A DNA stretch of 64,000 bases. Origin: a virus. How positions within the stretch are numbered: the stretch's first letter is position 1; each line of letters begins with the position of its first letter. The translations under genes and the position numbers were made by a program. The notes under the pieces are model-generated. The model ran no database searches. It was not told the DNA's origin and worked only from the letters and a program-made list of their open reading frames with translations. Where the stretch lies: IMG/VR virus record IMGVR_UViG_3300002092_000025; one strand, 5' to 3'. Shown here one piece after another: positions 2,022 through 17,375 of the stretch.

Positions 2022-2022
2022 T

Positions 2023-2223: not shown

Positions 2224-2224
2224 A

Positions 2225-2374: not shown

Positions 2375-2378
2375 CCAG

Positions 2379-2406: not shown

Positions 2407-2431
2407 ATAAGCATAAACAAAGGAGCATGAA

Positions 2432-2853: not shown

Positions 2854-3067
2854 CGTCTACGTCATTACCCGCGAGGACACGACCGATCGCTCCAGTCAGA
2901 TCATGGGGGTGTTCCCCGCAGAAGGGTTGGCAGAGATCGCCCGCGTGGTGCTGGAGCGGCGTATGACCAATGAGGATAAGGACGCCGGCATCTTCTTCCG
3001 CATCACAGCCTACCAACTGGGTAAACTGTATCCAGTTGACGTAGCCTTGTTAGATGCTATTATATAA
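2846..3067 (+). CDS. Hypothetical early protein
   Basis: Overlapping start; the ORF reads through the next promoter. Confidence 0.7.
   Translation: MDNVYVITREDTTDRSSQIMGVFPAEGLAEIARVVLERRMTNEDKDAGIFFRITAYQLGKLYPVDVALLDAII
3036..3063 (+). promoter_or_regulatory. Early sigma70 promoter, type A
   Basis: TTGACG-N13-TGCTATTAT. Confidence 0.85.
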
Positions 3068-3099
3068 ACATAAGCAAAACAGACACACAGGAGCACATC

Positions 3100-3585
3100 A
3101 TGGGTTTAGATATGTATCTCACCGGTAAGCGGTATATGGCATCTTGGATCGACTCTGCTGATACTGAAAAGCAATCCGCGATCCAGACGCTGTTCCCCGA
3201 ACTGGCAAATCTCCCAGGGGCCCATAGCGATAACCCTGTCCGTGAAGTCCGCATTGAGGCTGGCTACTGGCGCAAGGCCAACGCCATCCACGATTGGTTC
3301 GTTAAGAACGTCCAGGACGGCAAGGACGAATGCCAACCTCACTATGTGAGCCGTGAAGATTTGGCTGAACTCAAGACGCTATGCGAACGGGCCATTGCGG
3401 CTCGTGGGCGCGACTTTGAAGAAGAAACGTCCGAAGACATACTGCCCACTGCCAGCGGGTTCTTCTTTGGTGGCACCGAATACGACGATTGGTATTACGA
3501 TAATCTGGCTGACACGATCATAATCGTAGATCGTTGCTTGGCTCTGCCCGACGCTTGGGAATTCGAATACTGCTCCAGTTGGTAA
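3100..3585 (+). CDS. Conserved phage protein (MGLDMYL...YWRKANAIHxWF family)
   Basis: Widely seen motif set including GFFFG and C-terminal YxSSW; AGGAG RBS. Confidence 0.9.
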   Translation: MGLDMYLTGKRYMASWIDSADTEKQSAIQTLFPELANLPGAHSDNPVREVRIEAGYWRKANAIHDWFVKNVQDGKDECQPHYVSREDLAELKTLCERAIAARGRDFEEETSEDILPTASGFFFGGTEYDDWYYDNLADTIIIVDRCLALPDAWEFEYCSSW

Positions 3586-3725
3586 GCCGTGCGCGACACT
3601 GTGTCGCACAGAACAACCGCTATAGACCTACAAAGACGCGGATACACAGGGGCAGAGCAGATCTGCTGTATGCTATACGCAAGAAAAAAACCCCTGCTGT
3701 ATGTGCGTCTTTGTTGGTTGCTACC
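3586..3725 (+). ncRNA. Candidate structured intergenic RNA
   Basis: Long imperfect stem 3626-3652 pairing with 3691-3718, plus palindromes at 3593-3607 and 3656-3667. Confidence 0.45.
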
Positions 3726-3728
3726 CAC

Positions 3729-3756
3729 TTGACGCTGTCGCTGTAGATGCTATTAT
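3729..3756 (+). promoter_or_regulatory. Early sigma70 promoter, type A
   Basis: TTGACG-N13-TGCTATTAT. Confidence 0.85.
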
Positions 3757-3785
3757 ATAAACATAAACAAACAGGGGAAAACATC

Positions 3786-3932
3786 ATGTGGACCACTAAG
3801 TATTTCCGAGACTTTGCGGCCCAATGTGAATGGATCCGCAAGAATCGCAATCGTTATCAGATCACTCCGCTGTTCGTCAACAACGGCTATGCGGTTGAAT
3901 ATAAACTCCTAACCGTGTTGAGGATGGCGTAA
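3786..3932 (+). CDS. Hypothetical early protein (MWTTKYF)
   Basis: AGGGG RBS; start re-assigned downstream of the promoter. Confidence 0.75.
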   Translation: MWTTKYFRDFAAQCEWIRKNRNRYQITPLFVNNGYAVEYKLLTVLRMA

Positions 3933-4008
3933 TGACAGACTATCCAGACCTAGCCTACTGGGGCTCTTGACGTATAGTTTGCTAAACTCAAACCTAAGGA
4001 TAACTGAT

Positions 4009-4191
4009 ATGGCTAAGGTAAAGCAGAAGACAATTTCATTGGAACTGAACGAAGGAGAGTTGGATACTCTCTTCATTGGGCTCGAACGGGCCTGTGATGC
4101 TACCAGCGACAATGAGGACTTCAAATACTTTATGAAACTGATGGCCAAGATCGAAAAGGCCCAGAAGAAACTGATCAAGGAGGCGGCCTAA
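4009..4191 (+). CDS. Hypothetical early protein
   Basis: TAAGGA RBS; start re-assigned to ATG 4009. Confidence 0.75.
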   Translation: MAKVKQKTISLELNEGELDTLFIGLERACDATSDNEDFKYFMKLMAKIEKAQKKLIKEAA

Positions 4192-4427
4192 TGACTGACA
4201 AGACCTTTACCTTTACGATCGAACAGATCAAAGACATCTACCGTGCGGGTATCCGGCGTGGAGAGAATCAGCAATGTGCCTACGATTGGGGCGCTCGTGC
4301 TGGTGGCGGTGAATATGACGAATGTGTGGAGGCTATCCACGATATCGTCAACGACGGATTTAAGTGGGGCGATGTTGGTTATACCCACTACACTGATGTA
4401 GAAGATTGGTTCAAGGAGGCCAAGTGA
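4191..4427 (+). CDS. Hypothetical early protein
   Basis: AAGGAGG RBS, TAATG coupling. Confidence 0.8.
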   Translation: MTDKTFTFTIEQIKDIYRAGIRRGENQQCAYDWGARAGGGEYDECVEAIHDIVNDGFKWGDVGYTHYTDVEDWFKEAK

Positions 4428-4579
4428 TGGACGAAGCAACCTACAGAGTCCTCTTAGAATGTGTGGATCTGATCTTTGATTCCACCGAAGGACCCGCCGC
4501 AATCGTCCTTTCCAAACTAATTGATCTGATCGTTGAATATGAGGATAAACACTATCCTATAGATGAGGAGACTGCTTGA
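4427..4579 (+). CDS. 50-aa protein resembling the N-terminal domain of HigA-type antitoxins (no HTH)
   Basis: MDEATYRVLLECVDLIFDSTEGPAAIVLSKLIDLIVEYEDKHYPIDEETA; AAGGAGG RBS; absent from the ORF track. Confidence 0.65.
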   Translation: MDEATYRVLLECVDLIFDSTEGPAAIVLSKLIDLIVEYEDKHYPIDEETA

Positions 4580-4716
4580 TGTTCACTGTTACCTACTCCT
4601 ATTATGGTACTTACCAGCACGAGAAGACATTCGCTAGTGAGACTGCCGCCAAGAAGTTCTTCTGGTTCATACAGAAGAAGACAGGTGTGACTAAGGTGGA
4701 ATGGAGGGCACTGTAA
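4579..4716 (+). CDS. Hypothetical early protein, 45 aa (MFTVTYSYYG)
   Basis: GAGGAG RBS, TGATG coupling; absent from the ORF track. Confidence 0.7.
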   Translation: MFTVTYSYYGTYQHEKTFASETAAKKFFWFIQKKTGVTKVEWRAL

Positions 4717-4949
4717 TGGACACAGAACAACAGATCCTAGACCTATTCCAACAGGCCAGTTTTCACTTCGCTGACGATACTGGGTCTGAATGGGATCGAG
4801 CCTACTGGTGCTTGGATCGCGCTGCCGAGATCATCGTTGAACAGCGATACCCCCTATACCGTATCAAAGAACTAGTCAGGACCAGCGATAGCCTGATCGA
4901 TATCGATACGATCTTGACCAGGGTGCTCAAACAGGCGTATGGACAATGA
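4716..4949 (+). CDS. Hypothetical early protein
   Basis: GGAGG RBS, TAATG coupling. Confidence 0.75.
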   Translation: MDTEQQILDLFQQASFHFADDTGSEWDRAYWCLDRAAEIIVEQRYPLYRIKELVRTSDSLIDIDTILTRVLKQAYGQ

Positions 4950-5299
4950 TTGATCTTGCGAAAAAATATGGCAGTAGAGGTCTTACCTTGGGGGACTTGA
5001 CCGACCTGTTGGATTGGGACAAATGTCCTTCATGTTATATGATCAAAATGGTATTATCTGATAATACGCATGAGACCGTAGAGTATTGGTATCATACGAT
5101 TGGGACCCTAGAGTTTTGGCTTGAAGAAAATAGAAAACATAAGGTAGATTATTTTTGGAAAGAAGAATGGGAATACGACTCCGACGGTGGAGTCGCAGAT
5201 TATTGTATTAAATTCTATATTGCCAATCCAAAAGATGTGACACAGATATGCCTAATTTGGCCCATTGAAAAGGTCTATGCGCCATTTGAACACGATTAA
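4946..5299 (+). CDS. Hypothetical protein
   Basis: ATGA coupling; AT-richer than neighbours. Confidence 0.75.
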   Translation: MIDLAKKYGSRGLTLGDLTDLLDWDKCPSCYMIKMVLSDNTHETVEYWYHTIGTLEFWLEENRKHKVDYFWKEEWEYDSDGGVADYCIKFYIANPKDVTQICLIWPIEKVYAPFEHD

Positions 5300-5304
5300 C
5301 CCAG

Positions 5305-5332
5305 TTGACATAGCCCTGCGATATGCTATTAT
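5305..5332 (+). promoter_or_regulatory. Early sigma70 promoter, type A
   Basis: TTGACA-N13-TGCTATTAT. Confidence 0.85.
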
Positions 5333-5363
5333 AAAGCATAAACAAACACAACAGGAGCACACC

Positions 5364-5642
5364 ATGAGCAGCATCTATACACGCAAGGAAGAGGAAACTG
5401 TTCTCCGTAAAATGGAAGACTTCCTGGGCGACTTTACCTACACTGCGGAAAAGGAAATAGATTGGGAACTCAGCGATATCTTTAAATCTGAGGAAATCCT
5501 GCCCAAGATGAAAGCCCTGTATGAGGCTGTCTACGCTATCCAGGAAATGGTAGAGGAACGCCTGTCAACCTTGGAATTGGAGATCGAGGACGAGGACTAT
5601 TTCTTTGAACAGTTAGAAGACGCAATCAAGGAAGCCGCTTGA
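5364..5642 (+). CDS. Acidic hypothetical early protein
   Basis: AGGAG RBS; start re-assigned; very D/E rich. Confidence 0.8.
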   Translation: MSSIYTRKEEETVLRKMEDFLGDFTYTAEKEIDWELSDIFKSEEILPKMKALYEAVYAIQEMVEERLSTLELEIEDEDYFFEQLEDAIKEAA

Positions 5643-5666
5643 CGTATAGCCTATAGATGCTATTAT
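5639..5666 (+). promoter_or_regulatory. Early sigma70 promoter, type A
   Basis: TTGACG-N13-TGCTATTAT. Confidence 0.85.
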
Positions 5667-5698
5667 ATAAACATAAACAAACACAACAGGAGCACACT

Positions 5699-6022
5699 AT
5701 GATCTGGGCAGAAAATTTTATCCGAAACGATATTAACCCTAAAGTCCGTGAGTTCGTATACACCCTCCCAAAGGTCTCCGCTAAGGCAATAGGTCTAGAC
5801 GAACGCTGTGGGTTGGTCTATGTGGCAGATGACGCGATCATAGTCTATGTGGCTAACGACCGCCAACTCCAATACTACGGTGGGTTTGAATACGTATCCA
5901 AGTCATACCGTTGTGGTGTGGGTGACTTCGTGTTCTACTTCGCAGACGATGAACGTGTGAGCGACTGCTTGGATCACTTTAGGGTCGACCAAAAAGACAA
6001 AGCCCAGGAAGAACTAGCATGA
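5699..6022 (+). CDS. Hypothetical early protein (LQYYGGFEYV motif)
   Basis: AGGAG RBS; start re-assigned. Confidence 0.8.
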   Translation: MIWAENFIRNDINPKVREFVYTLPKVSAKAIGLDERCGLVYVADDAIIVYVANDRQLQYYGGFEYVSKSYRCGVGDFVFYFADDERVSDCLDHFRVDQKDKAQEELA

Positions 6023-6222
6023 GCGGAGGCTGGCATAGGGTAAGACACACAGACTGGGCCACTTGGATTAGGCCCGGTCTACTCATAGCCTACGGTGAGG
6101 GTGATCCCCCCACAGATGGGTATCTGGCTAGGGTCAGCCCAGACCTAACAGTAAATGGGCTAGACTTTGAATTCATATTCAGCCAATATGAATGGGTCCT
6201 GATCCTTACCGAGGATATATAA
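6019..6222 (+). CDS. Hypothetical early protein
   Basis: ATGA coupling. Confidence 0.7.
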   Translation: MSGGWHRVRHTDWATWIRPGLLIAYGEGDPPTDGYLARVSPDLTVNGLDFEFIFSQYEWVLILTEDI

Positions 6223-6226
6223 GAGC

Positions 6227-6400
6227 ATGAGCAACCCAAGAGAACTATTACAAAAGAAAATTGAGCAGGCCGTTAAAGAATTCCAAGCCCAGGGTGGTAA
6301 GATACAGAAGATCCCCGAGGGCCAGAAGACAGACCCCGCGGAACTAAAGAACCAATGGGGTCGCCCTCGCAAGAAGAAGCCAGTTGACACAGCCAAGTAA
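6227..6400 (+). CDS. SutA-like RNA-polymerase-binding microprotein with C-terminal GRPRKK (AT-hook-like)
   Basis: MSNPRELLQKKIEQAVKEFQAQGGKIQKIPEG...WGRPRKKK; absent from the ORF track. Confidence 0.65.
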   Translation: MSNPRELLQKKIEQAVKEFQAQGGKIQKIPEGQKTDPAELKNQWGRPRKKKPVDTAK

Positions 6401-6411
6401 GATGCTATTAT
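6384..6411 (+). promoter_or_regulatory. Early sigma70 promoter, type A
   Basis: TTGACA-N13-TGCTATTAT. Confidence 0.85.
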
Positions 6412-6442
6412 ATAAGCATAAACAAACACACAGGAGCACACT

Positions 6443-6793
6443 ATGAGTGGTTGGCATATCGTCCACAAGAAAGCACCCTACGATTCAGTTAAGTGGTACG
6501 CAACAGAACGTGGCGCGAAGATCGGCGTCCGTGCAAGTAATAAGAACGCAGGGTGGCGTCGTGTTTCACCCTGCTGGACCAACGGTATCTATATGGAATG
6601 GGCTGAGAAAGATAACCAATACGACTACGCACCCTACCAAGTAATGAGCGACTATGATTACCAAAAGAAGTGGGTCGACGCCCTACCTGTTAAGGTTAAG
6701 AGCCTCATGGATAGCACAAAAGAAATAGAGATCCACCCCAGCAAGGTTGGAACGCATATGGACCCCAGCCAAGAACGCTATTGGAGCCAATAA
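6443..6793 (+). CDS. Conserved phage hypothetical protein (VKSLM...DPSQERYWS)
   Basis: AGGAG RBS; C-terminal motif recurrent in phage early proteins. Confidence 0.85.
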   Translation: MSGWHIVHKKAPYDSVKWYATERGAKIGVRASNKNAGWRRVSPCWTNGIYMEWAEKDNQYDYAPYQVMSDYDYQKKWVDALPVKVKSLMDSTKEIEIHPSKVGTHMDPSQERYWSQ

Positions 6794-6794
6794 G

Positions 6795-6977
6795 ATGAAC
6801 GAAGAACAGCACACGATCAATAAGGTTATTCTAGAACTGATCGCAGAACAGGCCAATCGTATCACTAAACTAGAAGCAGATGTGAAACGACTACAGAGCA
6901 AGAACACCTTCCGTAGTCTGGGCAAGGGTAAGAACTGCGAAAAACCTTCAATTGAAAAGGTCGTGATAGCATCATGA
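6795..6977 (+). CDS. Hypothetical coiled-coil protein
   Basis: GGAG RBS; start re-assigned to ATG 6795. Confidence 0.65.
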   Translation: MNEEQHTINKVILELIAEQANRITKLEADVKRLQSKNTFRSLGKGKNCEKPSIEKVVIAS

Positions 6978-6981
6978 CTAA

Positions 6982-7176
6982 ATGGATGCTCATGCTACCC
7001 ATACTGCTCTTACTGCTATGGATCCACTCTCTTATATTACTAGTGGAAACGGGTGGACCTTGAGATTTGATGAACCATATCACACTATACTATTATGGAT
7101 CGGCGAGCATTGGTATGTGCTCGCTATCCTACTCTACATGCTAGTCCAATATTGGAAAGAAAAGAACCTGATCTAA
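6982..7176 (+). CDS. Small membrane protein (start could be 7018)
   Basis: Hydrophobic stretch WYVLAILLYMLVQYW. Confidence 0.55.
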   Translation: MDAHATHTALTAMDPLSYITSGNGWTLRFDEPYHTILLWIGEHWYVLAILLYMLVQYWKEKNLI

Positions 7177-7442
7177 TGCCCGAGAATAACCTCAACGAGG
7201 TTCGCGCGATTTTTCCACACACGATCGCCGTATACCATATCCAACACAGTAGAGCAGCACACGATCTGATCAAATGGTGTATGGATAACTTCCAACACGA
7301 CTGGACTAAACACTTCGTAGACGGTATAGTCTATATCCAACTGGAACAAGAGTCCGACTTATCACTGTTCTTACTATATTGGGGTCAGGATAATCGTATA
7401 GACTATACTATAATAGATATCCTAAGCGAACTGGGACTATAA
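7176..7442 (+). CDS. Hypothetical protein
   Basis: TAATG coupling; WC..NF...D..LFLLYW pattern. Confidence 0.7.
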   Translation: MPENNLNEVRAIFPHTIAVYHIQHSRAAHDLIKWCMDNFQHDWTKHFVDGIVYIQLEQESDLSLFLLYWGQDNRIDYTIIDILSELGL

Positions 7443-7445
7443 CAT

Positions 7446-7739
7446 ATGATCACAACTATAACACTCCATGGCAATACACACCAATGCATCGAGATAAGCG
7501 AATGGATCACGAATCGTGGATACACGCACGATCAAGATTATACTTGGAGCAGAGTAGATCGTAATGGTGAGAGGTATATACTGATCCATACACGTGAAGC
7601 CAAACTAGCCACACTGGTAGCACTACAGTTCTCAAACCTAAACCCAATACAGGGTATACACCCAGATCTCAAACAGGGAGGAGATCAACTTCGAACTGAA
7701 ACTATGTGGCTAGGATCCGTATCGCACAACCACATATAG
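7446..7739 (+). CDS. Hypothetical protein
   Basis: ORF in operon orientation. Confidence 0.7.
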   Translation: MITTITLHGNTHQCIEISEWITNRGYTHDQDYTWSRVDRNGERYILIHTREAKLATLVALQFSNLNPIQGIHPDLKQGGDQLRTETMWLGSVSHNHI

Positions 7740-7814
7740 GCCCCGCTGTGACTATAAGCACAATACCAATACCCTATACACACAATGGCCCCGCTGTGGG
7801 CAATAGGCATACAG

Positions 7815-8135
7815 ATGAAACAACACGCCTACTTCGTCAGTGGACTAACAACGAACCAAAAGACCTTCTTAGAGTCTAATGGCTGCAGCATAGAACAGAA
7901 CTTAAAACGAACCCATCTCAACTATTGGCTCTCAACAGAAGGCGTTAAGGTCACAGTAAAGAACGAACAGGGCAAAGACGCATGGGGCCTCATACAGAAC
8001 AGTGATCTAACCGTAATACAGAGTTTGGTTTATACTCCAGAACCACATAAGCCGTTAAGTGGGACTAGAGCAGATTGGGTTATAGTGGATGAGGTTGAGA
8101 CTATAAGCGAAGAACTGTGGAGCGGAACCGTTTGA
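7815..8135 (+). CDS. Hypothetical protein
   Basis: ORF; start uncertain (7785 or 7815). Confidence 0.55.
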   Translation: MKQHAYFVSGLTTNQKTFLESNGCSIEQNLKRTHLNYWLSTEGVKVTVKNEQGKDAWGLIQNSDLTVIQSLVYTPEPHKPLSGTRADWVIVDEVETISEELWSGTV

Positions 8136-8158
8136 TATATCATGAGATCTGTTTGAAA

Positions 8159-8226
8159 TAACAGTTTGGGACAGAGTGTAACAGAATTGGGACAGATTGG
8201 GACAGAATTGGGACAGATTGGACATG
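8159..8226. repeat. Tandem 10-11 bp repeat array (ACAG[A]ATTGGG)
   Basis: ACAG at 8161, 8171, 8181, 8192, 8202, 8213 and ACAT at 8222. Confidence 0.85.
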
Positions 8227-8293
8227 TGGATATAAACATATCTTTATATCATTGTCGCTATACCTGCCGAGACCATCCCCTGAGAATCCTGCG

Positions 8294-8465
8294 GCCCACA
8301 GTAGACCACCATAGACCACCGTTCACACCAGCCAATTGAATGGTTCAGATCTGGAGATAATATGAATATATTCACATTCTGGAGTGGTCGGATCTGGTCG
8401 ATCCGCCATCGTAGACCACGATCCGGACCGGTCTGCCACGGTGAACCAACCACGATCAGCCACAG
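8294..8465. repeat. Degenerate 10-bp-phased (TAGA)CCAC repeats
   Basis: CCAC/CCAT/CCAA at 8296, 8306, 8316, 8406, 8416, 8436, 8446, 8450, 8460; TAGACCAC three times. Confidence 0.6.
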
Positions 8466-8485
8466 TGACTCTATACTATACAGTA

Positions 8486-8514
8486 AGGATAGCACGATTC
8501 CAGAACTGCGTCAA
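8486..8514 (-). promoter_or_regulatory. Antisense sigma70-type promoter
   Basis: Minus strand TTGACG-N14-TGCTATCCT. Confidence 0.55.
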
Positions 8515-8630
8515 GCGGATCCATAATGGATTGGGCGATCCACATAGGGATCTTGTGGAATTCTGGTCTGGGCGGGAATCCAGGATTCACCAACACTCTC
8601 GGCTCCCCAGTATCCCTGGACCTCAAGTAT

Positions 8631-8658
8631 ATAATAGCACGTCTGCACTCTGCGTCAA
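8631..8658 (-). promoter_or_regulatory. Antisense early promoter with the full consensus
   Basis: Minus strand TTGACG-cagagtgcagacg-TGCTATTAT. Confidence 0.8.
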
Positions 8659-8691
8659 CCTGGGCGGTCTAGGCCCCGCTGCTAGGGGCAT

Positions 8692-8719
8692 TTGACAAGC
8701 CCGTATTGTGTGCTATTAT
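8692..8719 (+). promoter_or_regulatory. Early sigma70 promoter, type B (no ORF before next promoter)
   Basis: TTGACA-N13-TGCTATTAT-ACATTATAAAC. Confidence 0.85.
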
Positions 8720-8736
8720 ACATTATAAACAAAAAC

Positions 8737-8766
8737 AAGCGCAAGCGCACCATAAGCGCAAGCGCA
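8737..8766. repeat. AAGCGC x4 mini-array
   Basis: Copies at 8737, 8743, 8754, 8760. Confidence 0.8.
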
Positions 8767-8777
8767 AAAAACACTAT

Positions 8778-8805
8778 TTGACACTATGCTAAGACGTGCT
8801 ATTAT
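8778..8805 (+). promoter_or_regulatory. Early sigma70 promoter, type B
   Basis: TTGACA-N13-TGCTATTAT. Confidence 0.85.
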
Positions 8806-8833
8806 ACATTATAAACAAACAACGGAGCGCAAC

Positions 8834-9082
8834 ATGTTGTCTCAAGAGTATATTATAAACAATAGCAAGTATACCCATGATTATGAAGCAGAAGCCATTG
8901 CTAGTTTTGAAGCAACGGGCGACGATAAAATGGACCTGTTGCTTGAACGTTTTGAGAACAGTATTGAGTTTGATGACAGCGACGACCTTGGCGGGCTGTC
9001 TGTATACTTTAAAGACGGCAAGATGGTAGCCTTTTACGACTATGAGAACTTCCGTGGCAGCAACGAATTGCTGTCTGCTTGA
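8834..9082 (+). CDS. Acidic hypothetical early protein
   Basis: GGAG RBS; start re-assigned to ATG 8834. Confidence 0.8.
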   Translation: MLSQEYIINNSKYTHDYEAEAIASFEATGDDKMDLLLERFENSIEFDDSDDLGGLSVYFKDGKMVAFYDYENFRGSNELLSA

Positions 9083-9106
9083 CGTGCTTATAGAACGTGC
9101 TATTAT
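9079..9106 (+). promoter_or_regulatory. Early sigma70 promoter, type B
   Basis: TTGACG-N13-TGCTATTAT. Confidence 0.85.
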
Positions 9107-9137
9107 ACATTATAAACATTAACAACGGAGCAAACAA

Positions 9138-9323
9138 ATGGCTACTTTCCTCGCACAACGTGTCGTCACTTATTTTACAAAAATTGAAGCAGACAGCCAA
9201 GACGCCGCACAAGACGCCGCAGACGCCTTAGCAATGGAAAAAGACGGCATTGTTGATACTAAGACTTGGTCCGTAGGGGCTGACGAACTTACGGTTGAAG
9301 AGGACGACCATACAGACTTTTAA
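9138..9323 (+). CDS. Acidic hypothetical early protein
   Basis: GGAG RBS. Confidence 0.8.
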   Translation: MATFLAQRVVTYFTKIEADSQDAAQDAADALAMEKDGIVDTKTWSVGADELTVEEDDHTDF

Positions 9324-9329
9324 GCAAGG

Positions 9330-9357
9330 TTGACGTGCTGATAAGACGTGCTATTAT
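9330..9357 (+). promoter_or_regulatory. Early sigma70 promoter, type B
   Basis: TTGACG-N13-TGCTATTAT. Confidence 0.85.
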
Positions 9358-9388
9358 ACATTATAAACAAAACGCAACGGAGCGCAAA

Positions 9389-9637
9389 ATGAGCAAGCAA
9401 TTCACAGTCGTTGGAACTAGCGTCCTCAATGGTGTCCTCAAAGTCCGCTTTGCTAACGATTTAGCAAGCCGCATCAAAGTATTGGGTCGCAACGGGCACA
9501 CGGACATTAACCTTATCTATTGTGCTTACGAAATGGATAAAGTAGACGCTGTTAAATTTGCCATTACGCAAGAAACCCAGTTTAACGAAGTAGAGCGTGA
9601 ATTGTTTGCTGCCTATATTAAAGCAAACGAGTTTTAA
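9389..9637 (+). CDS. Conserved jumbo-phage protein (KVRFAND...GHTD family), paralog 1
   Basis: GGAG RBS; clear paralog of 11082-11309. Confidence 0.85.
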   Translation: MSKQFTVVGTSVLNGVLKVRFANDLASRIKVLGRNGHTDINLIYCAYEMDKVDAVKFAITQETQFNEVERELFAAYIKANEF

Positions 9638-9658
9638 TACTATAAGCACAGGGCGGGG

Positions 9659-9686
9659 TTGACGTGCTCTCGCCCTGTGCTATTAT
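9659..9686 (+). promoter_or_regulatory. Early sigma70 promoter, type B, embedded in a hairpin
   Basis: TTGACG-N13-TGCTATTAT; GCACAGGGCG/CGCCCTGTGC arms flank the -35. Confidence 0.85.
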
Positions 9687-9714
9687 ACATTATAAACAAA
9701 CAACGGAGAACATC

Positions 9715-9939
9715 ATGACAGACGAGACGGCGATATTCAAGGTGACGGTGGTCTCCAACGGCAATCCGTTTTATCTGCGCAACACGGTGTGGACCAGCGA
9801 TCCCGACCGAGCCACTGAGTTCGAATCGTGGAACGAGGCTCTCGCAGGCCTGCGCAAGGCTGAGAAGTTCATGAAGTCTTCCATATACAAAAAGGCTGAG
9901 ATCAAACTGTTCGACGAGAACACAAAGACCCTAGGTTGA
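9715..9939 (+). CDS. Hypothetical early protein
   Basis: GGAG RBS; start re-assigned. Confidence 0.8.
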   Translation: MTDETAIFKVTVVSNGNPFYLRNTVWTSDPDRATEFESWNEALAGLRKAEKFMKSSIYKKAEIKLFDENTKTLG

Positions 9940-9963
9940 CGTGCTGTTAGGGTGTGCTATTAT
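9936..9963 (+). promoter_or_regulatory. Early sigma70 promoter, type B
   Basis: TTGACG-N13-TGCTATTAT. Confidence 0.85.
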
Positions 9964-9994
9964 ACATTATAAACATTAACAACGGAGCAAGCAG

Positions 9995-10174
9995 ATGAGC
10001 AGCATCGTAACCCACGCAAAGCGGATTGACCAAGGACTTGCGGACATCGTCGCTGAGTATATAGCCTCCAAGGGTGTCACAGTATGCCGCCCTGGGGCAA
10101 AGTCTACCAAGTCGCAGGGTAGCAAGCACGCCGGGAAGAGCACCTATATGAAGGGCAGCCGTAGGGCGGCCTAA
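9995..10174 (+). CDS. 59-aa basic protein, weakly SutA-like
   Basis: LADIVAEYIASKGVTVCRPG; GGAG RBS; absent from the ORF track. Confidence 0.65.
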   Translation: MSSIVTHAKRIDQGLADIVAEYIASKGVTVCRPGAKSTKSQGSKHAGKSTYMKGSRRAA

Positions 10175-10185
10175 CAAGAGTTTAT

Positions 10186-10260
10186 TCCGACATAGCTCAG
10201 CGGTAGAGTAGGTGGCTGTTAACCACTTGGTCCCTGGTTCGAATCCAGGTGTCGGAGCCA
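10186..10260 (+). tRNA. tRNA-Asn(GTT)
   Basis: TCCGACA/TGTCGGA acceptor, CT-GTT-AA loop, GTTCGAATC, encoded CCA. Confidence 0.95.
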
Positions 10261-10265
10261 ATCAT

Positions 10266-10341
10266 GCCTGCTTAGTGTTAGTGGCTAGCACGTCAGTTTG
10301 TGGAACTGAAAGAGTTGGATCGAAACCAACAGCAGGTACCA
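10266..10341 (+). tRNA. tRNA-His(GTG), alphaproteobacterial type
   Basis: GCCTGCT/AGCAGGT acceptor (G1:U72), A73, CCA; TT-GTG-GA loop; position -1 is T. Confidence 0.9.
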
Positions 10342-10348
10342 ATATAAA

Positions 10349-10426
10349 CTCTCGGTCGCCTAGTCTGGTATGGCACCTGTTTTGGGAACAGGAATAACGT
10401 CGGTTCGAATCCGGCCCGGGAGACCA
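10349..10426 (+). tRNA. tRNA-Pro(TGG)
   Basis: CTCTCGG/CCGGGAG acceptor, TT-TGG-GA loop, CCA. Confidence 0.93.
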
Positions 10427-10438
10427 AATCGAAAAAGG

Positions 10439-10466
10439 TTGACACGATCAGACTCTGTGCTATTAT
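10439..10466 (+). promoter_or_regulatory. Early sigma70 promoter, type B
   Basis: TTGACA-N13-TGCTATTAT. Confidence 0.85.
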
Positions 10467-10493
10467 GTATTATAGACATTAAGGAGCAAGCAG

Positions 10494-10682
10494 ATGAGCA
10501 ACACCACAGCAGGTACTATCCTCACAGTCGTTGGGATTTGGTTCGCTATCCTGGGAGTCTCGGGTATGGAATCCTCGATCAACGATCAATCGCTGTTCGC
10601 CGGTTCGTTGGTCAGCATCGTGGGCGTCGGGGTGTTGGGCTGTGGGGTGTTGATGCTGAGACAGGTTGACAGCAGAGGCTAA
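10494..10682 (+). CDS. Small two-TM membrane protein
   Basis: Two hydrophobic segments; TAAGGAG RBS. Confidence 0.8.
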   Translation: MSNTTAGTILTVVGIWFAILGVSGMESSINDQSLFAGSLVSIVGVGVLGCGVLMLRQVDSRG

Positions 10683-10693
10683 GGTGCTATTAT
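10666..10693 (+). promoter_or_regulatory. Early sigma70 promoter, type B
   Basis: TTGACA-N13-TGCTATTAT. Confidence 0.85.
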
Positions 10694-10725
10694 ACATTAT
10701 AGACATTAAGCAACAGGGGTAGGCG

Positions 10726-11001
10726 ATGTATAACGCGATGACCGACACTGCGATCCGCAAAGCACTCAAGATCCTCCGCAAGAACCGCGACGAGGGACGC
10801 GACGTCCAAGAAGCACAGATCATGATCGACGGAATGATCGACGAGTTGATCCGTAGGAACACAGACCCCTACACCACGGCAGCAGACATCCGCTACTTCG
10901 AGAGCGAAGAGTGTGAGCCCGACTGCGTCACTGGTTGCGATCCTGCGGAGTATGAGGATGAGGATTGGTCCAACCAATCCGCGATCTCCTATACATTATA
11001 G
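10726..11001 (+). CDS. Hypothetical early protein
   Basis: ORF behind promoter. Confidence 0.75.
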   Translation: MYNAMTDTAIRKALKILRKNRDEGRDVQEAQIMIDGMIDELIRRNTDPYTTAADIRYFESEECEPDCVTGCDPAEYEDEDWSNQSAISYTL

Positions 11002-11014
11002 ACCGAGGGGTAGG

Positions 11015-11042
11015 TTGACAACACTAGAACAGATGCTATTAT
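11015..11042 (+). promoter_or_regulatory. Early sigma70 promoter, type B
   Basis: TTGACA-N13-TGCTATTAT. Confidence 0.85.
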
Positions 11043-11081
11043 ACATTATAGACAGTAAGACACACACACAGGAGATACAAC

Positions 11082-11309
11082 ATGTCTAAGTCATTCACAG
11101 TTGCTGGTACTTCCGTCCTCAACGGCAAAGAAAAAGTTCGTTTCGCTAACGATATCGCAACCCGCGTTAAGGTGCTTGCTCGCAACGGGCACACGGATGT
11201 GGACTTGATCGAACTGCCCACAGAGATGGACAAAGAAATGGCTGTGCTGTTCCTCAAGGGACTGGAGCGTTTCAAAGATAAAGAAAGCGTCCTCGCTTAC
11301 ACCGCATAA
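11082..11309 (+). CDS. Conserved jumbo-phage protein (KVRFAND...GHTD family), paralog 2
   Basis: AGGAG RBS; paralog of 9389-9637. Confidence 0.85.
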   Translation: MSKSFTVAGTSVLNGKEKVRFANDIATRVKVLARNGHTDVDLIELPTEMDKEMAVLFLKGLERFKDKESVLAYTA

Positions 11310-11318
11310 GTAAGATCA

Positions 11319-11356
11319 TAGGGAGGTTGACAACAGCCTCCCTACTCTGCTACTAT
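11319..11356 (+). promoter_or_regulatory. Hairpin overlapping the tRNA promoter
   Basis: TAGGGAGGTTG-ACAA-CAGCCTCCCTA stem-loop containing TTGACA; TGCTACTAT downstream. Confidence 0.7.
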
Positions 11357-11378
11357 AAGACAATAGATAATAGTTCGT

Positions 11379-11455
11379 GGGCCTATAGCTCAATTGGTTA
11401 GAGCAACGGTCTCATAAACCGTAGGTTACTGGTTCAAGTCCATTTGGGCCCACCA
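11379..11455 (+). tRNA. tRNA-CAT, probably Ile2 (lysidine) rather than Met
   Basis: GGGCCTA/TGGGCCC acceptor typical of Ile2, CT-CAT-AA loop, CCA. Confidence 0.85.
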
Positions 11456-11464
11456 ACTATTAAG

Positions 11465-11540
11465 GCCCGCGTATTCCAATGGTAGAGAAGGAAGACTTAA
11501 AATCTTCACAGTGTCAGTTCGAATCTGACCGCGGGCACCA
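11465..11540 (+). tRNA. tRNA-Leu(TAA) with short variable loop
   Basis: GCCCGCG/CGCGGGC acceptor, CT-TAA-AA loop, 5-nt variable region, A73, CCA. Confidence 0.9.
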
Positions 11541-11561
11541 TTCCTCATACGAAAGAATAAC

Positions 11562-11780
11562 ATGTTGGATAATGTTTTAAAGTACGTGGGTATGATCGCA
11601 GTGATACTAGGTGCGATCCTCACAAGTCTCCGCATCGATCCCGCGAACATATTCTTCCTCAACCTCGGTGCGCTCGCATATCTGATATGGTCAGTACGTA
11701 TCCGTGAGTGGAACTTGGTAGCAGTCAACGGGACACTCTTAGCGATCTATATCGTTGGGGCGGTGTTGACAAACTCCTAA
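11562..11780 (+). CDS. Small three-TM membrane protein
   Basis: Three hydrophobic helices; resembles half-size PnuC/SemiSWEET-like phage proteins. Confidence 0.75.
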   Translation: MLDNVLKYVGMIAVILGAILTSLRIDPANIFFLNLGALAYLIWSVRIREWNLVAVNGTLLAIYIVGAVLTNS

Positions 11781-11819: not shown

Positions 11820-12026
11820 ATGTTCGTACTGTCATTAGATCAGGGCTACGATGGCGAGGCATGCTTAGGTGTGTACTCAACACAAGCGAAAGCAGAAGCA
11901 GCCTGGGAAGCATATAAGCTGTGCCCTGTTTACTTCGAAAGCGATTGCTATCTAATCTACAAGATAGCAGTAGACGACAAGCCCCGCATACAGTCGATGG
12001 TAGACGATGGTTCATGGAGAGACTAA
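11820..12026 (+). CDS. Hypothetical early protein (LGVYST..KAE motif)
   Basis: GGGAG RBS. Confidence 0.8.
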   Translation: MFVLSLDQGYDGEACLGVYSTQAKAEAAWEAYKLCPVYFESDCYLIYKIAVDDKPRIQSMVDDGSWRD

Positions 12027-12027
12027 C

Positions 12028-12174
12028 ATGCTGAAGATGAAACGTTATACGGTAGTCATGGACTGCGGCGCACACCTCAATGTAATAGCCACCGGCTGTG
12101 CTAGAGCGTTAGAGATCGCAACACAAGCAGGATGGATGCCCTGGGACATACAGCATATAGAGGAGCGAACATAA
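12028..12174 (+). CDS. Hypothetical protein, 48 aa
   Basis: GGAG RBS; TAATG coupling to the next gene; absent from the ORF track. Confidence 0.6.
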   Translation: MLKMKRYTVVMDCGAHLNVIATGCARALEIATQAGWMPWDIQHIEERT

Positions 12175-12461
12175 TGTGGCTACTCCTACCCTTAGCAGGT
12201 ATGGCTGCTGGCTACTACCTAGGGCGTGAGAGTCCTGCTGCGATGTGGACTATCATCCTAGTCTGTTGTGTCACTATAGCGATAGGACTAGGTGACCCTG
12301 CCCTAGCTGTGATAGCACTGTGCTGGATGATAGGTATAGCAGTAGCCATAGCCGTCCTACTCAACATCATACCTATCCTACTGTTCCTCTTCGGGGCTGC
12401 TGTTGCCCTACTGTTCATCATAGTACTGTTCACGGGCATCTGTAAGCTGGCGGGGGTGTGA
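12174..12461 (+). CDS. Highly hydrophobic membrane protein
   Basis: GAGGAG RBS; start re-assigned to MWLLLPL. Confidence 0.75.
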   Translation: MWLLLPLAGMAAGYYLGRESPAAMWTIILVCCVTIAIGLGDPALAVIALCWMIGIAVAIAVLLNIIPILLFLFGAAVALLFIIVLFTGICKLAGV

Positions 12462-12462
12462 C

Positions 12463-12588
12463 ATGCGGGTTGGCGATCACATGTGGATCATCACTAGTAT
12501 CGACTCAGGATGGATGCATCACAGTTGGGCTTATTGGGCGGCGGAGAATACGGTTATGGTCAAGGCCATGGTGGTCTGGTCATTCTGA
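12463..12588 (+). CDS. Possible 41-aa protein
   Basis: GGGGGT RBS-like sequence, follows the upstream stop. Confidence 0.4.
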   Translation: MRVGDHMWIITSIDSGWMHHSWAYWAAENTVMVKAMVVWSF

Positions 12589-14605: not shown

Positions 14606-16009
14606 TCACTCACCTATGCTCAATTTATAAGAGAATTTCTTACCTTCTTTAAAGGTCTGAGTAGTTGTAGTAGTTCCCTGAGTCTTTTTGTTTTTCCAAG
14701 CTGGTTGCCATTTCTGTCCTGGCTGTAGTTTAGCTGGTGCTGCTTGCGGTGTAGCTGGCTGCTGTTGAGCAGGTTGTTGTAGTTGACTTACGTTACGTTT
14801 AAATCCACCAGCTGCTGGTTGTTGTACAGCAACTCCTGGTTCAGCAGTTGGCACTGTTCCTGGTCCTGGTTGAGCTACTGGTTGAGCAGGAGTCTTAGAT
14901 CCAAATGCACCTTTGATAGCTGCTCCTGCTTTACCTATCGCACCTTTTACTGCACCCATTGCACCGCCTGTTGCGGCTCCCCCTGGTGTTGTTTTGCTGG
15001 CAGCACCTGCCGGAGCTGGCTCAGCTTTTGTTTTCTTCTCGCCGCCTGCCGCCGCGCCGGTTACTGCGCCTTGTACTGCTGCTGACAAGTTCTTTGCGAT
15101 ATCTTGCATTTGTGCTGCGGAAGACAATATCTGGTCTTTCTGCGCTTCTAGTGTTTTATTGACTGCTACAATACCGTCTAACCATTTTTTATAATCCGGT
15201 GAAGCAAAATAAGCACTGATCTGATTAAACTGTTGTTGGGCCGATGCATAATCGCTCGATTTTGCTGCCTTCACGGCTGTATTCCACCAACCCTGTAGTT
15301 TCTGAGCCTCATCAGCTGGGATCATAGTACGCAGATGGCCTGCTGCGCTACCACTTCTACTACCTCCCATCTCTATCCTCTGATAATCTAAATTAGCTTC
15401 GATGACATCTCTGATACCCTTTACAGGGTTCATCTGTATATGCATATTGGCTATAAAATCACCTAGTTCACGTATACCTATCCCTGCGAGCCAACCAAAT
15501 GCTGCGCCTTTTACACTCTTACCTATAGCAGTAGAAGCCTTCTCACCTTTAAGCAATTCATTACCTGCTCGTAGCACTGCGCCAGCTGCTGCACCGCCTG
15601 CTGGTCCTGTTACAAGACTTGCTACCGCAGTTAGCATACCTATGATAAGTCCTTGTTTAACTGGATTTTGTTTAGCCCATTCTCCGTATTTACGAGCAGT
15701 ATCGGCTAACTTAGGATTAGCTGCACCAATCTTTTGAAGTATACCGTCTACTTTTATATCAAAGCCCTGTACTGGTGCAGTTTTCTGTGCTAATTGTCCC
15801 AGTCTATTGATAGCATCGTTAGCTGTCTTTACACCTGATACACCTGCACCTACTGCGGATTTTACAGCGTTCCATACACCTGCTTCATCTAATCGACCTT
15901 CGTTTAGCATAACTTGTCTTAAAGCAAGTGCTTCAAACAGTGCAGCCATTTCTTTGATTTCTGCTTCTTGTCGGCGACTGTTATCAACTATATCGATGTA
16001 ATTTCTCAT
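14606..16009 (-). CDS. Ala/Gly-rich virion protein, candidate ejected/internal protein
   Basis: Start re-assigned to MRNYIDIV (16009) after TAAATA; LNEG/LDEA motifs; hydrophobic GxxxG helices. Confidence 0.75.
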   Translation of the reverse strand: MRNYIDIVDNSRRQEAEIKEMAALFEALALRQVMLNEGRLDEAGVWNAVKSAVGAGVSGVKTANDAINRLGQLAQKTAPVQGFDIKVDGILQKIGAANPKLADTARKYGEWAKQNPVKQGLIIGMLTAVASLVTGPAGGAAAGAVLRAGNELLKGEKASTAIGKSVKGAAFGWLAGIGIRELGDFIANMHIQMNPVKGIRDVIEANLDYQRIEMGGSRSGSAAGHLRTMIPADEAQKLQGWWNTAVKAAKSSDYASAQQQFNQISAYFASPDYKKWLDGIVAVNKTLEAQKDQILSSAAQMQDIAKNLSAAVQGAVTGAAAGGEKKTKAEPAPAGAASKTTPGGAATGGAMGAVKGAIGKAGAAIKGAFGSKTPAQPVAQPGPGTVPTAEPGVAVQQPAAGGFKRNVSQLQQPAQQQPATPQAAPAKLQPGQKWQPAWKNKKTQGTTTTTQTFKEGKKFSYKLSIGE

Positions 16010-16035
16010 TATGGTATCTTTCCCCAGTGATAGAT

Positions 16036-16050
16036 TATTTATTATAAATA
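16036..16050. promoter_or_regulatory. Back-to-back T4-type late promoters
   Basis: TATTTATTATAAATA gives TATAAATA on + and TAAATA on -. Confidence 0.7.
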
Positions 16051-16055
16051 ATAGT

Positions 16056-16421
16056 ATGAGAGCAAATGAATTCATAGCGGAAGATGTACATAGGATGCCC
16101 GACGACCATAAGTCATCGATTAAAGGTGCTATCACTACCCCTAAGGGTAATATGAGTACAGGATCTGCTTATCTCAACTATCGTATGGGTATCGCAATGG
16201 CTGGTGCACCAGAGTTTCCTACTAAAGCAACTAATGAAATAGGCGGTGATCCGTTATACAGCACATACACCGATGCTGAATTCGATATTATCAATTACGC
16301 TGCTAAACAAGTTGGTGCTGCTCCTGTTAAGAAAATAACCAACAACCGCAGCGAAGAACTCAGCAATACTAACAAAGTTAGCCCAGTTGCTAAGATAAAA
16401 CGCAACAAGTACGGCGTATAA
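16056..16421 (+). CDS. Candidate internal head protein
   Basis: Start re-assigned to MRANEFIAE, 5 nt after TATAAATA. Confidence 0.8.
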   Translation: MRANEFIAEDVHRMPDDHKSSIKGAITTPKGNMSTGSAYLNYRMGIAMAGAPEFPTKATNEIGGDPLYSTYTDAEFDIINYAAKQVGAAPVKKITNNRSEELSNTNKVSPVAKIKRNKYGV

Positions 16422-16449
16422 ACAATCTAACATGACAGTATGATGACAC

Positions 16450-16526
16450 TATGCGTTTTTCGCATACCTGATCTACGCTGCGCTGCAACATTTTTCCTTG
16501 CGTTGCCATATAAATATTGTTATAGT
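16450..16526 (+). promoter_or_regulatory. Regulated promoter with LysR-type palindrome, PhaR-like box and sigma70 elements
   Basis: TATGCG-N5-CGCATA 16450-16466; TGCGCTGCA 16479-16487; TTGCGT-N17-TATAGT; internal TATAAATA. Confidence 0.55.
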
Positions 16527-16556
16527 ACAGCATAGACAAACACACAGGAGACAGTC

Positions 16557-16736
16557 ATGTTACTAACATTTTTATCAAGCGTTAACGCTGCAATCAAGCG
16601 TTATTTCGAATACCGTAAGACAGTTTATGAACTCAACCAATTAACCAATCGTGATCTACGTGATCTCGGTATTGCCCGTTGCGATATTGAATTCATCGCA
16701 CGTAAGCATAGTACAGGAGCATTTAAAGTATCATGA
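16557..16736 (+). CDS. DUF1127 (YjiS-like) small protein
   Basis: YRKTVYELNQLTNRDLRDLGIARCDI; AGGAG RBS; absent from the ORF track. Confidence 0.88.
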   Translation: MLLTFLSSVNAAIKRYFEYRKTVYELNQLTNRDLRDLGIARCDIEFIARKHSTGAFKVS

Positions 16737-16810
16737 TCGCACTTGTATTTTTATTAACCGATGCTATAGAAAATCTATATCACAATCTAGTGATAGGTAA
16801 ATCATTATGA
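16733..16810 (+). CDS. 25-aa microprotein (MIALVFLL)
   Basis: ATGA coupling on both sides. Confidence 0.5.
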   Translation: MIALVFLLTDAIENLYHNLVIGKSL

Positions 16811-16908
16811 TCGCTCTATTAGTCAGTATCTATAACTTCATATTAGAATCTAGAACACGTCAAGTCGATGAAATGATTCGCACTGGACGTATTCCACGCT
16901 ACTTCTAA
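16807..16908 (+). CDS. 33-aa microprotein (MIALLVSI)
   Basis: ATGA coupling. Confidence 0.55.
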   Translation: MIALLVSIYNFILESRTRQVDEMIRTGRIPRYF

Positions 16909-16938
16909 AAAAACAGTACACACACAGAGGAGAAAACC

Positions 16939-17157
16939 ATGTACTCATTAGACACCTATATCGACACTATCCAGAATACTAAGAAGACAGTCACTAAGCA
17001 ATTAGTATCCGACGAGACTCTACAAAATACTCTAGTTGGCATGATCGACGCACAGACAACTGTTGCTAAGACATTTACTAATGATCTTATTAAGAGCACA
17101 AAGCAGTTTAATGATAATGTCTGGTCTGTTATGAAATCTTTTACAAAATCAGCTTAA
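16939..17157 (+). CDS. Small helical protein, possibly phasin-like
   Basis: GAGGAG RBS; amphipathic helical composition (IDTIQNTKK...IDAQT). Confidence 0.7.
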   Translation: MYSLDTYIDTIQNTKKTVTKQLVSDETLQNTLVGMIDAQTTVAKTFTNDLIKSTKQFNDNVWSVMKSFTKSA

Positions 17158-17375
17158 TAGCGATTGTAAGATTCGATATCGCTAAACTTTAAATCAAACA
17201 GGAGCGCACTGTTAGCGTCGGGGAATTCAACCTCAAACACGCTAACAATCGCTCCTGTTCCTTCACGGAAGTAGCTATAAGTGACTTTAACATCTTTATG
17301 ATCTATTAACCAATCATGGACTTCGCATTCGCGTTCCATCGGTAGATCAACGAACTTATAGATCCTCGTCGCCAC
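17154..17375 (-). CDS. Hypothetical protein
   Basis: Ends FPDANSALLFDLKF; overlaps the helicase end. Confidence 0.7.
   Translation of the reverse strand: MATRIYKFVDLPMERECEVHDWLIDHKDVKVTYSYFREGTGAIVSVFEVEFPDANSALLFDLKFSDIESYNRY

Follow-up and report, generated by a model that had tools for sequence, protein, structure and literature searches.

A DUF1127 gene cassette with candidate PhaR-type operator boxes in an uncultured freshwater jumbo phage

A 64 kb (64,000 nt) stretch of viral DNA, IMG/VR record IMGVR_UViG_3300002092_000025 (here called the window), comes from a jumbo phage of freshwater origin, uncultured and probably infecting Alphaproteobacteria, and carries, at 16450-17157, a small cassette headed by a gene for a DUF1127 protein. 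Behind the DUF1127 gene lie two overlapping micro-peptide genes and a gene for a helical protein of 72 amino acids (aa), and in front of it a predicted promoter with two boxes of the type recognized by the bacterial regulator PhaR/AniA (Table 1). A DNA search of the GenBank phages with this region gave no match. A preliminary description of the same DNA had proposed a hidden operon of exactly these four genes under apparent host regulator boxes, and on re-reading the sequence every one of its open reading frames (ORFs) and upstream motifs was located where it had been placed.

Table 1. Features of the DUF1127 cassette and its immediate downstream boundary (positions in the window).
Feature	Position	Strand	Remarks
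Inverted repeat TATGCG-N5-CGCATA	16450-16466		left cassette boundary; two YGCR half-sites 4-5 nt apart
GCATACCTGATCT, match to GCAT-N3-TG-N3-T	16462-16474	+	overlaps the inverted repeat
PhaR-type box 1, TGCGCTGCA	16479-16487		perfect YGCRNYGCR core (8/8), 78 nt before the ATG
Predicted sigma-70-like promoter, TTGCGT-N17-TATAGT	16498-16526	+	TG two bases before the -10 element
PhaR-type box 2, TGCGTTGCC	16499-16507		8/9 positions, 7/8 specified; overlaps the -35 element
TATAAATA in the promoter spacer	16509-16516	+	identical to the T4-type late promoter consensus
DUF1127 ORF, 59 aa	16557-16736	+	Pfam PF06568
Micro-peptide ORF, 25 aa	16733-16810	+	start overlaps the DUF1127 stop as ATGA; begins MIAL
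Micro-peptide ORF, 33 aa	16807-16908	+	start overlaps the stop of the 25-aa ORF as ATGA; begins MIAL
Two-helix protein ORF, 72 aa	16939-17157	+	own Shine-Dalgarno leader; optional part of the cassette
Long hairpin	17198-17258	both	-32.9 kcal/mol (+), -37.9 kcal/mol (-), z about -6

Ten related cassettes from IMG/VR and from lake metagenomes (lakes as judged from sample names) were available for comparison; their loci, like the others discussed below, are labelled with L-numbers. In comparison with three relatives, variation in each of the four ORFs is concentrated at third codon positions, and the ratio of nonsynonymous to synonymous polymorphism (pN/pS) lies between 0 and 0.44. Variable columns are distributed over the three codon positions as 6/1/13 in the 25-aa ORF (pN/pS 0.06-0.37) and as 8/4/17 in the 33-aa ORF (0.23-0.38), and the 72-aa ORF has values of 0.06-0.21; given this third-position bias and the low pN/pS, the 25-, 33- and 72-aa ORFs are genes, and purifying selection thereby backs the hidden operon of the preliminary description. 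The cassette has a sharp left edge: the match to L001 and L012, in which the upstream gene encodes a radical-SAM enzyme and differs from that of the window, starts exactly at the inverted repeat at 16450. The gene next to it varies with the phage, being that of a helicase in the window, capsid-like in L017 and fibre-like in L020, and the 72-aa gene is absent from L017, L019 and L020. Since it occupies differing genomic positions and has an optional last gene, the unit behaves as a moron; the constant core of this moron-like cassette is the promoter, the DUF1127 gene, the 25-aa gene and the 33-aa gene.

The assignment of the 59-aa protein to DUF1127, which had been made from the sequence alone, is borne out by the Pfam hidden Markov model (HMM): PF06568 is matched with an E-value of 1.5e-10 over profile positions 3-37 of 37, at 41.1 bits against a curated cut-off of 23.3, and phrog_26566 is matched as well (E 2.4e-10). 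The phage protein has a net charge of +4, 10% arginine and a hydrophobic N-terminal segment. It has 34 clusters of close relatives, and 22 phage-type members share the invariant residues R20, T22, Y24, L26, L29, R32, D33, L34, D36, L37, G38, R41, D43, I44 and E45. Among bacteria, all 80 of the nearest DUF1127 genes are alphaproteobacterial, the closest coming from metagenome-assembled genomes of Hyphomicrobiales, several of them apparently from lakes; the search patterns were specific, so this set is biased towards close kin. Bacterial members of the family that have been studied include SDP1-3 of Agrobacterium and YjiS of Escherichia coli, which bind the phosphate sensor kinase PhoR, and CcaF1 of Rhodobacter, which binds RNA (PMC12501420), and by likeness to them the phage protein may bind PhoR or RNA.

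In other lake phages a small heat-shock gene (Hsp20) directly precedes the DUF1127 gene, the stop codon of the first often overlapping the start of the second or lying next to it. This arrangement is seen at L003, L005, L006, L015, L016, L018, L021, L022, L025, L026, L030 and L031 (Hsp20 being confirmed by Pfam in L003, L006 and L021 and recognized by eye in the rest), and L023 and L024 are truncated by the end of their contigs.

The operator of PhaR/AniA in Sinorhizobium meliloti has the consensus WNWDDN-YGCRNYGCR-NHHWNW; two copies flank the -35 element at phaP1 and at phaP2, and mutation of the palindrome abolishes PhaR binding (PMC12542648). The promoter of the phage cassette is laid out in the same manner: its two boxes are spaced 20 bp centre to centre, the second falling on TTGCGT, which we take from the sequence to be the -35 element. 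The motif TGCGCTGCAACA is present from 16479, and the core of box 1 is the same as that of the S. meliloti phaZ, panC and SMc02240 sites. Perfect YGCRNYGCR cores are rare in the window, with three copies in 64 kb, and the promoter copy is the sole intergenic one, the copy at 835 having been judged by its position between early-promoter cassettes in a stretch taken as coding. The third, at 12064-12072, was considered as the mark of a second PhaR-controlled gene and rejected, as it lies inside a small coding ORF. Looser forms of the motif do not exceed chance: CTGC-N3-GCA, as the preliminary description had written it, occurs 5 times against 4.5 expected by chance, and the full 21-nt consensus at up to two mismatches is common (59 found, 94 expected).

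Each of the ten cassettes contains at least one perfect core, so that the boxes are indeed kept in related phage operons. Box 1 is perfect and box 2 stands at 7/8 in seven of them, whereas in the three most divergent (L017, L019 and L020) box 1 has decayed and box 2 is perfect, with 16/16 on the 21-nt consensus. Substitutions are confined to degenerate positions of the motif (G/A at R, T/C at Y, any base at N) and the GC pairs are constant; over box 2, TTGCnnTG is invariant in all ten. Cassettes that have no 72-aa gene still keep a perfect box because the operator goes with the DUF1127 gene. No PhaR boxes were found upstream of eight Hsp20-linked DUF1127 genes, and no PhaR homolog was found to be encoded in the window or in 34 fetched phage loci.

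The same core marks bacterial DUF1127 genes. Among the 80 nearest bacterial genes, 35 have a perfect copy in the 130 bp upstream, where shuffling predicts one in 4.6% of such regions; after grouping alignable upstream regions it is found in 15 of 31 lineages (about 1.4 expected), six of which have two cores, and a group of 23 Paracoccus paralogs has none upstream of DUF1127. Core positions are fixed within a lineage, at about -80 in the freshwater Hyphomicrobiales (box 1 of the phage is at -78), and paired cores are 19 bp apart in roseobacters and about 30 bp apart in an Aestuariivirga-type group. Ten roseobacter loci (L076, L077, L080, L082, L090, L098, L104, L106, L109 and L113) have two perfect cores with gcATAAATac between them, and this pair resembles the phage box followed by TATAAATA. 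Phasin genes served as the positive control: when the 250 bp upstream of 36 alphaproteobacterial Phasin_2 genes were scanned, 25 of the genes proved to have a perfect core, 19 of them at least two, against 5 of 25 control ATP-synt_B loci, one of which has two or more; the latter family served as the control after DUF883, tried as a helical negative control, was not found in the genomes sampled. One unpublished genome, G045, contributes to tallies alone; none of its loci was used and no conclusion depends on it. No paper linking DUF1127 with PhaR or with polyhydroxybutyrate (PHB) was found in the literature searched, and the distribution of the cores suggests that many alphaproteobacterial DUF1127 genes are placed behind PhaR operators. 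With the operator match, the second copy over the -35 element, conservation in ten of ten cassettes, and boxes that recur at bacterial DUF1127 genes and at the class's phasin genes, the original reading of the boxes as PhaR sites is supported.

Several lines of evidence point to the Alphaproteobacteria, the clade in which the regulators named in the preliminary description exist, as the host clade. The DnaB-like helicase is most similar to those of the Pseudomonas PA5oct group (55% identity), Agrobacterium phage Atu_ph07 (53%) and Sinorhizobium phage Phosso (49%). The tRNA-His (10266-10341) has T at -1, and hence no G-1, with G1:U72 and A73, which is the type of Rhizobiales, Rhodobacterales, Caulobacterales and their kin. 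Besides the bacterial kin of the DUF1127 protein described above, all 11 GenBank phage records with a DUF1127 match (7 distinct phages) are from phages of Sinorhizobium, Agrobacterium or a roseobacter. PhaR itself is present in five of five sampled alphaproteobacterial genomes.

The promoter also has phage features. Its -10 element, leader and Shine-Dalgarno sequence are a diverged copy of a stereotyped early promoter-leader, with a weaker -35 element (TTGCGT), and its leader sequence, GCATAGACAAACACACAGGAG, agrees with those of the 19 early promoters that serve small genes at 639-11766; the promoter itself, at 8/12, is below the threshold of the scan tool. The late-type box TATAAATA in the spacer is invariant in ten of ten cassettes while its flanks vary, and its count in the window is that of chance (7 against 8.6 expected), four of the other six copies lying just upstream of gene starts. 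At the left boundary the inverted repeat stands out from its background (one match to TATGC-N7-GCATA in the window against 0.13 expected; hairpin -6.6 kcal/mol, z -3.3), its arms varying among cassettes by G/A and C/T changes, with a spacing of 4-5 nt and the left arm missing in L020. We do not regard a conserved ORF of 31 aa further upstream (16440-16535) as a gene, as single-base indels shift its frame among cassettes and it has no ribosome-binding site; an Rfam scan returned sub-threshold microRNA noise only.

Given a promoter and leader of the stereotyped early family, an invariant T4-type late box in the spacer and a box 2 that overlaps the -35 element, the boxes might be ordinary parts of a phage promoter, such as a -35 element or upstream contacts, or the site of a phage-encoded regulator, or else inert relics of a captured host DUF1127 promoter, in which case the cassette would follow the early and late programme of the phage and PHB would be irrelevant. 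Short palindromes with a GC core are easily found, near-matches of at least 7/8 occurring at 0.22 per 110 bp. However, the 19 true early promoters contain no perfect core and only background near-matches, and box 1 lies outside the -35 element; the perfect core survives a divergence that scrambles its neighbours, the perfect copy switching from box 1 to box 2; and the same boxes mark bacterial DUF1127 and phasin genes. We hold this explanation to be rather unlikely.

A different host regulator had also been proposed for the operon. The LysR-type regulator VtlR/LsrB recognizes GCAT-N3-TG-N3-T and activates the DUF1127 genes atu1667, BAB1_0914 and BAB2_0512 (PMC7486931); the motif as given in the preliminary description agrees with this published form, and through GCATACCTGATCT the regulator might activate the phage operon as it does in Agrobacterium and Brucella, possibly together with PhaR. 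The motif is enriched upstream of the bacterial DUF1127 genes (11 of 80 against 1.8 expected), mainly in the freshwater Hyphomicrobiales nearest to the phage protein, in which a conserved GCATAGCTG(T/A)CTT about 55 nt upstream of the PhaR core resembles the phage GCATACCTGATCT. From this arrangement, and from the GCATA(C/G)C half, which is kept in ten of ten cassettes, the phage promoter looks like a compacted host DUF1127 promoter. As a conserved element, though, the box is not supported: in the window the motif is at chance frequency (9 against 10.3 expected), its TG is kept in four of the ten cassettes and lost in the other six, and DUF1127 in Atu_ph07, Phosso and phiM12, phages that infect hosts possessing VtlR/LsrB, has none upstream. 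The published consensus is moreover built on very few sites, and we consider activation by LsrB/VtlR rather improbable.

Both micro-peptides have hydrophobic N-termini. In the 25-aa peptide, which is near-identical in ten of ten cassettes, this is followed by an acidic middle; in the 33-aa peptide 13 hydrophobic residues are followed by a basic helix and the end RTGRIPRYF. An overlapping ORF of 29-31 aa also follows the DUF1127 gene in seven Hsp20-linked loci (L006, L021, L022, L023, L026, L027 and L030). L031 equals L030 over the stretch from DUF1127 to peptide, and six of the Hsp20-linked peptides were aligned with the 33-aa peptide: all have the hydrophobic N-terminus and a K(A/S)QE(R/K)(R/K)(A/V)E..(I/L)R(T/N) segment in common, and profile comparison by hhalign relates the 33-aa peptide to them at 89% probability (E 2e-6). 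No partner-peptide ORF was found after the 80 bacterial DUF1127 genes, and none is annotated after DUF1127 in the three records of Atu_ph07, Phosso and phiM12. This conserved partner peptide of about 30 aa is a new finding, and within the material searched its pairing with DUF1127 looks phage-specific.

In several Hsp20-linked loci the DUF1127 gene is followed by the partner peptide and then by a GH19-like lysozyme gene. A reading of the cassette as a module that acts on membranes or times lysis, or as a toxin-antidote set, with the micro-peptides as effectors and DUF1127 as modulator, would suit the run of about 13 hydrophobic residues at the start of both peptides and the place of the Hsp20-linked peptide directly before an endolysin-looking gene (a weak Pfam match: E 8.3e-05, 22.9 bits, cut-off 25.5), yet 13 residues are not enough for a normal membrane span, a lysis gene is absent nearby in the window and in nine other cassettes, and neither Pfam nor PHROGs reveals any likeness to known holins, spanins or type I toxins, which makes this reading very improbable.

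The 72-aa protein had been called phasin-like, and here the evidence divides. The family of its close relatives is narrow, with 18 clusters at 69% identity or more, and an exhaustive profile search added some 40 small, distant relatives with the common pattern M(F/Y)x5-ID-x-(V/I)QN-x-KK ... IDAQT-xxx-K. By protein-language-model comparison its neighbours are PHA-related, with scores of 0.81-0.92: the nearest is a viral cluster with the automatic name 'Phasin family protein', and the nearest Pfam-bearing clusters are those of Phasin_2, PHB_acc and PHA_synth_III_E, which we take as a lead only. When the family was aligned by hhalign with a Phasin_2 profile built from the 36 alphaproteobacterial genes, it gave a score of 26.6 (57% probability, P 1.1e-4, 34 columns), compared with 14.5 and 14.2 for reversed profiles, at most 15.2 in 300 column shuffles and 8.4 for ATP-synt_B; the alignment is centred on ..l..fIDaQTefaKt of the family against KTLKDAIDLQTGFAKT of the phasins. 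The HMM of the 72-aa family matches 19 of 36 phasin domains; among the controls it matches 4 of the 36 reversed domains and none of 29 ATP-synt_B sequences. A structural model from a deeper alignment has two helices, 2-22 and 26-71, at a predicted local distance difference test (pLDDT) score of 93.

Membership in a known phasin family is not supported at model thresholds. No phasin model of Pfam, NCBIfam or PHROG was matched by 19 close members (to E 10) or 29 distant members (to E 1), the 72-aa protein being under every curated cut-off for Phasin_2 (PF09361) and the other phasin families; the reciprocal phasin HMM matches 18 of 29 family members and its reversed control still 10 of 29; Foldseek against the PDB gave nothing below E 1; and the solved phasin 5ip0_A, which fits the model with Z 7.5 and a root-mean-square deviation of 1.9 over 70 residues, ranks 18th and is tied with many unrelated long-helix chains. 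In tblastn searches of the GenBank phages, neither the 72-aa protein nor one distant relative nor a genuine phasin domain gave a match, and neither a member of the 72-aa family nor a phasin homolog was found in GenBank phage records. The part of the claim that stands is thus a weak match to Phasin_2 above the reversed, shuffled and ATP-synt_B controls, and the protein may work like a small phasin. Two single-protein scans for the genomic context of distant relatives found nothing. Two large proteins, P0053 (632 aa) and P0063 (1492 aa), contain seven and four stretches, respectively, that match the family profile (region 32-65), so the IDAQT..K helix unit also occurs as a tandem repeat in large proteins.

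From the promoter and its relatives, we think it somewhat more probable than otherwise that this moron-like DUF1127 cassette combines a phage early-type promoter with two host PhaR/AniA-type boxes and is expressed in dependence on PHB. In the established model PhaR is a repressor that is drawn off by PHB granules (PMC12542648). Applied to the phage, free PhaR in a host without PHB would sit on the boxes and hold the promoter down, and in a PHB-loaded host PhaR would be drawn onto the granules and the cassette expressed. The DUF1127 protein, probably with its partner peptide, would then bind PhoR and retune the Pho regulon, or bind RNA and change its turnover, and the 72-aa protein may sit on the granule surface. 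The suggestion of the preliminary description that the operon serves to tap storage granules is speculation, with nothing found that speaks either way. PHB accumulates under carbon excess combined with a shortage of phosphorus or nitrogen, so a modulator of phosphate signalling tied to PhaR would suit the replication of a very large phage genome.

A number of points weigh against this interpretation. Over the full 21-nt consensus the window boxes reach 14/16 and 13/16. Because box 2 overlaps the -35-like TTGC, part of its conservation may be promoter constraint, and because the ten cassettes are related their shared boxes do not amount to ten independent events; the boxes could also be leftovers that arrived together with a host gene captured by the phage. 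The view of the phage genome is limited to 64 kb. PhaR can activate as well as repress (PMC12849132), so control of the cassette may have either sign. The phage DUF1127 protein may have one or other of the known activities of its family and may mimic or block the host proteins, and any granule function would be optional, given the three cassettes that have no 72-aa gene.

The fuller proposal is more tentative, and we put it at somewhat below even chances: that the phage reads the PHB store of its host through PhaR and deploys a host-derived DUF1127 protein, a phage-specific micro-peptide and a miniature phasin only in carbon-loaded cells, one subfamily of DUF1127 proteins being, as a corollary, an unrecognised member of the PhaR regulon across Alphaproteobacteria. 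If PhaR controls the promoter, part of the phage programme would depend on stored host carbon, and this would be a case of host-state sensing by a lytic giant phage that is undescribed in the literature searched. On the bacterial side, the placing of many alphaproteobacterial DUF1127 genes behind PhaR operators would connect PHB storage with the control of phosphate uptake or RNA turnover, and a DUF1127 subfamily within the PhaR regulon would link carbon storage to the phosphate control that DUF1127 proteins exert. The pairing of DUF1127 with a peptide of about 30 aa gives a starting point for learning how this small and widespread domain selects its targets.

Some further features of the window deserve mention. 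The 61-nt hairpin downstream of the 72-aa gene divides the operon from a convergent helicase unit, is kept in L001, L002 and L004, and is a probable two-way terminator between convergent transcription units. A minus-strand ORF of 73 aa (17154-17375) crosses this hairpin and extends over the stop codon of the 72-aa gene; towards its 3' end it may be non-coding. On the other side of the cassette is a divergent pair of genes, 16011-16421 (+) for a protein of 121-136 aa with a late-type box and 14606-16135 (-) for an Ala/Gly/Gln-rich protein of 509 aa, neither with a family match in Pfam or PHROGs. The sequence TATAAATAATAGTATG stands at both 16043-16058 (+) and 43617-43632 (-), where the start codon comes 5 nt downstream of the late-type box, and at 39564-39571 (-) an ATG follows the late-type box by 6 nt; judging from this spacing, late transcripts of the genes at 16043, 43617 and 39564 may be leaderless or nearly so. 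A patch at 12000-12500 has 51% GC against about 40% for the genome, contains two ORFs, one of 55 aa and the other, which is very hydrophobic, of about 95 aa (12175-12461), and is possibly a recent acquisition.

The closest known parallel to the promoter is that of phaP1 and phaP2 of S. meliloti under PhaR/AniA, with the same YGCRNYGCR core, arms that fit the AT-rich consensus in part, and a pair of copies spaced by roughly two helical turns at the -35 element (PMC12542648). With the PhaR-phasin circuits of PHB-forming proteobacteria in general the cassette would share a small amphipathic helical protein among its genes and, presumably, a repressor titrated by granules; it differs in its location on a phage, in a first gene that encodes DUF1127 and not a phasin, and in being known here from sequence alone, and the 72-aa protein is about half the size of phasins and under the thresholds of their family HMMs. 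The DUF1127 genes activated by VtlR/LsrB have GCAT-N3-TG-N3-T upstream and belong to the bacterial class that this phage probably infects, but the phage match is not kept among related cassettes and is not above chance. Compared with the bacterial proteins SDP1-3, YjiS and CcaF1, the phage protein has the same domain, small size, basic charge and core R..T..EL..L..RDL.DLGI.R.DI, and differs in its hydrophobic N-terminal segment, its coupled micro-peptides (not found after the 80 bacterial genes) and its upstream PhaR-type boxes. DUF1127 is also carried by the cultured phages Atu_ph07, Phosso, phiM7/M12/M19/N3 and Roseobacter phage CRP-7, two of which are jumbo relatives, as proteins of 47-52 aa annotated as hypothetical; these are 37-45% identical to the window copy and are encoded by stand-alone genes. 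The pstS and phoA genes of cyanophages, under the PhoBR system of the host, are auxiliary phage genes regulated by the host, and in both cases a phage gene would be placed under a regulator of host nutrient status through a host operator; here, however, the signal would be PHB, sensed via PhaR, and the cargo regulatory micro-proteins rather than a transporter or an enzyme. Features that appear particular to this locus are DUF1127 as the first gene, the link with the promoters of bacterial DUF1127 genes, and the partner peptide.

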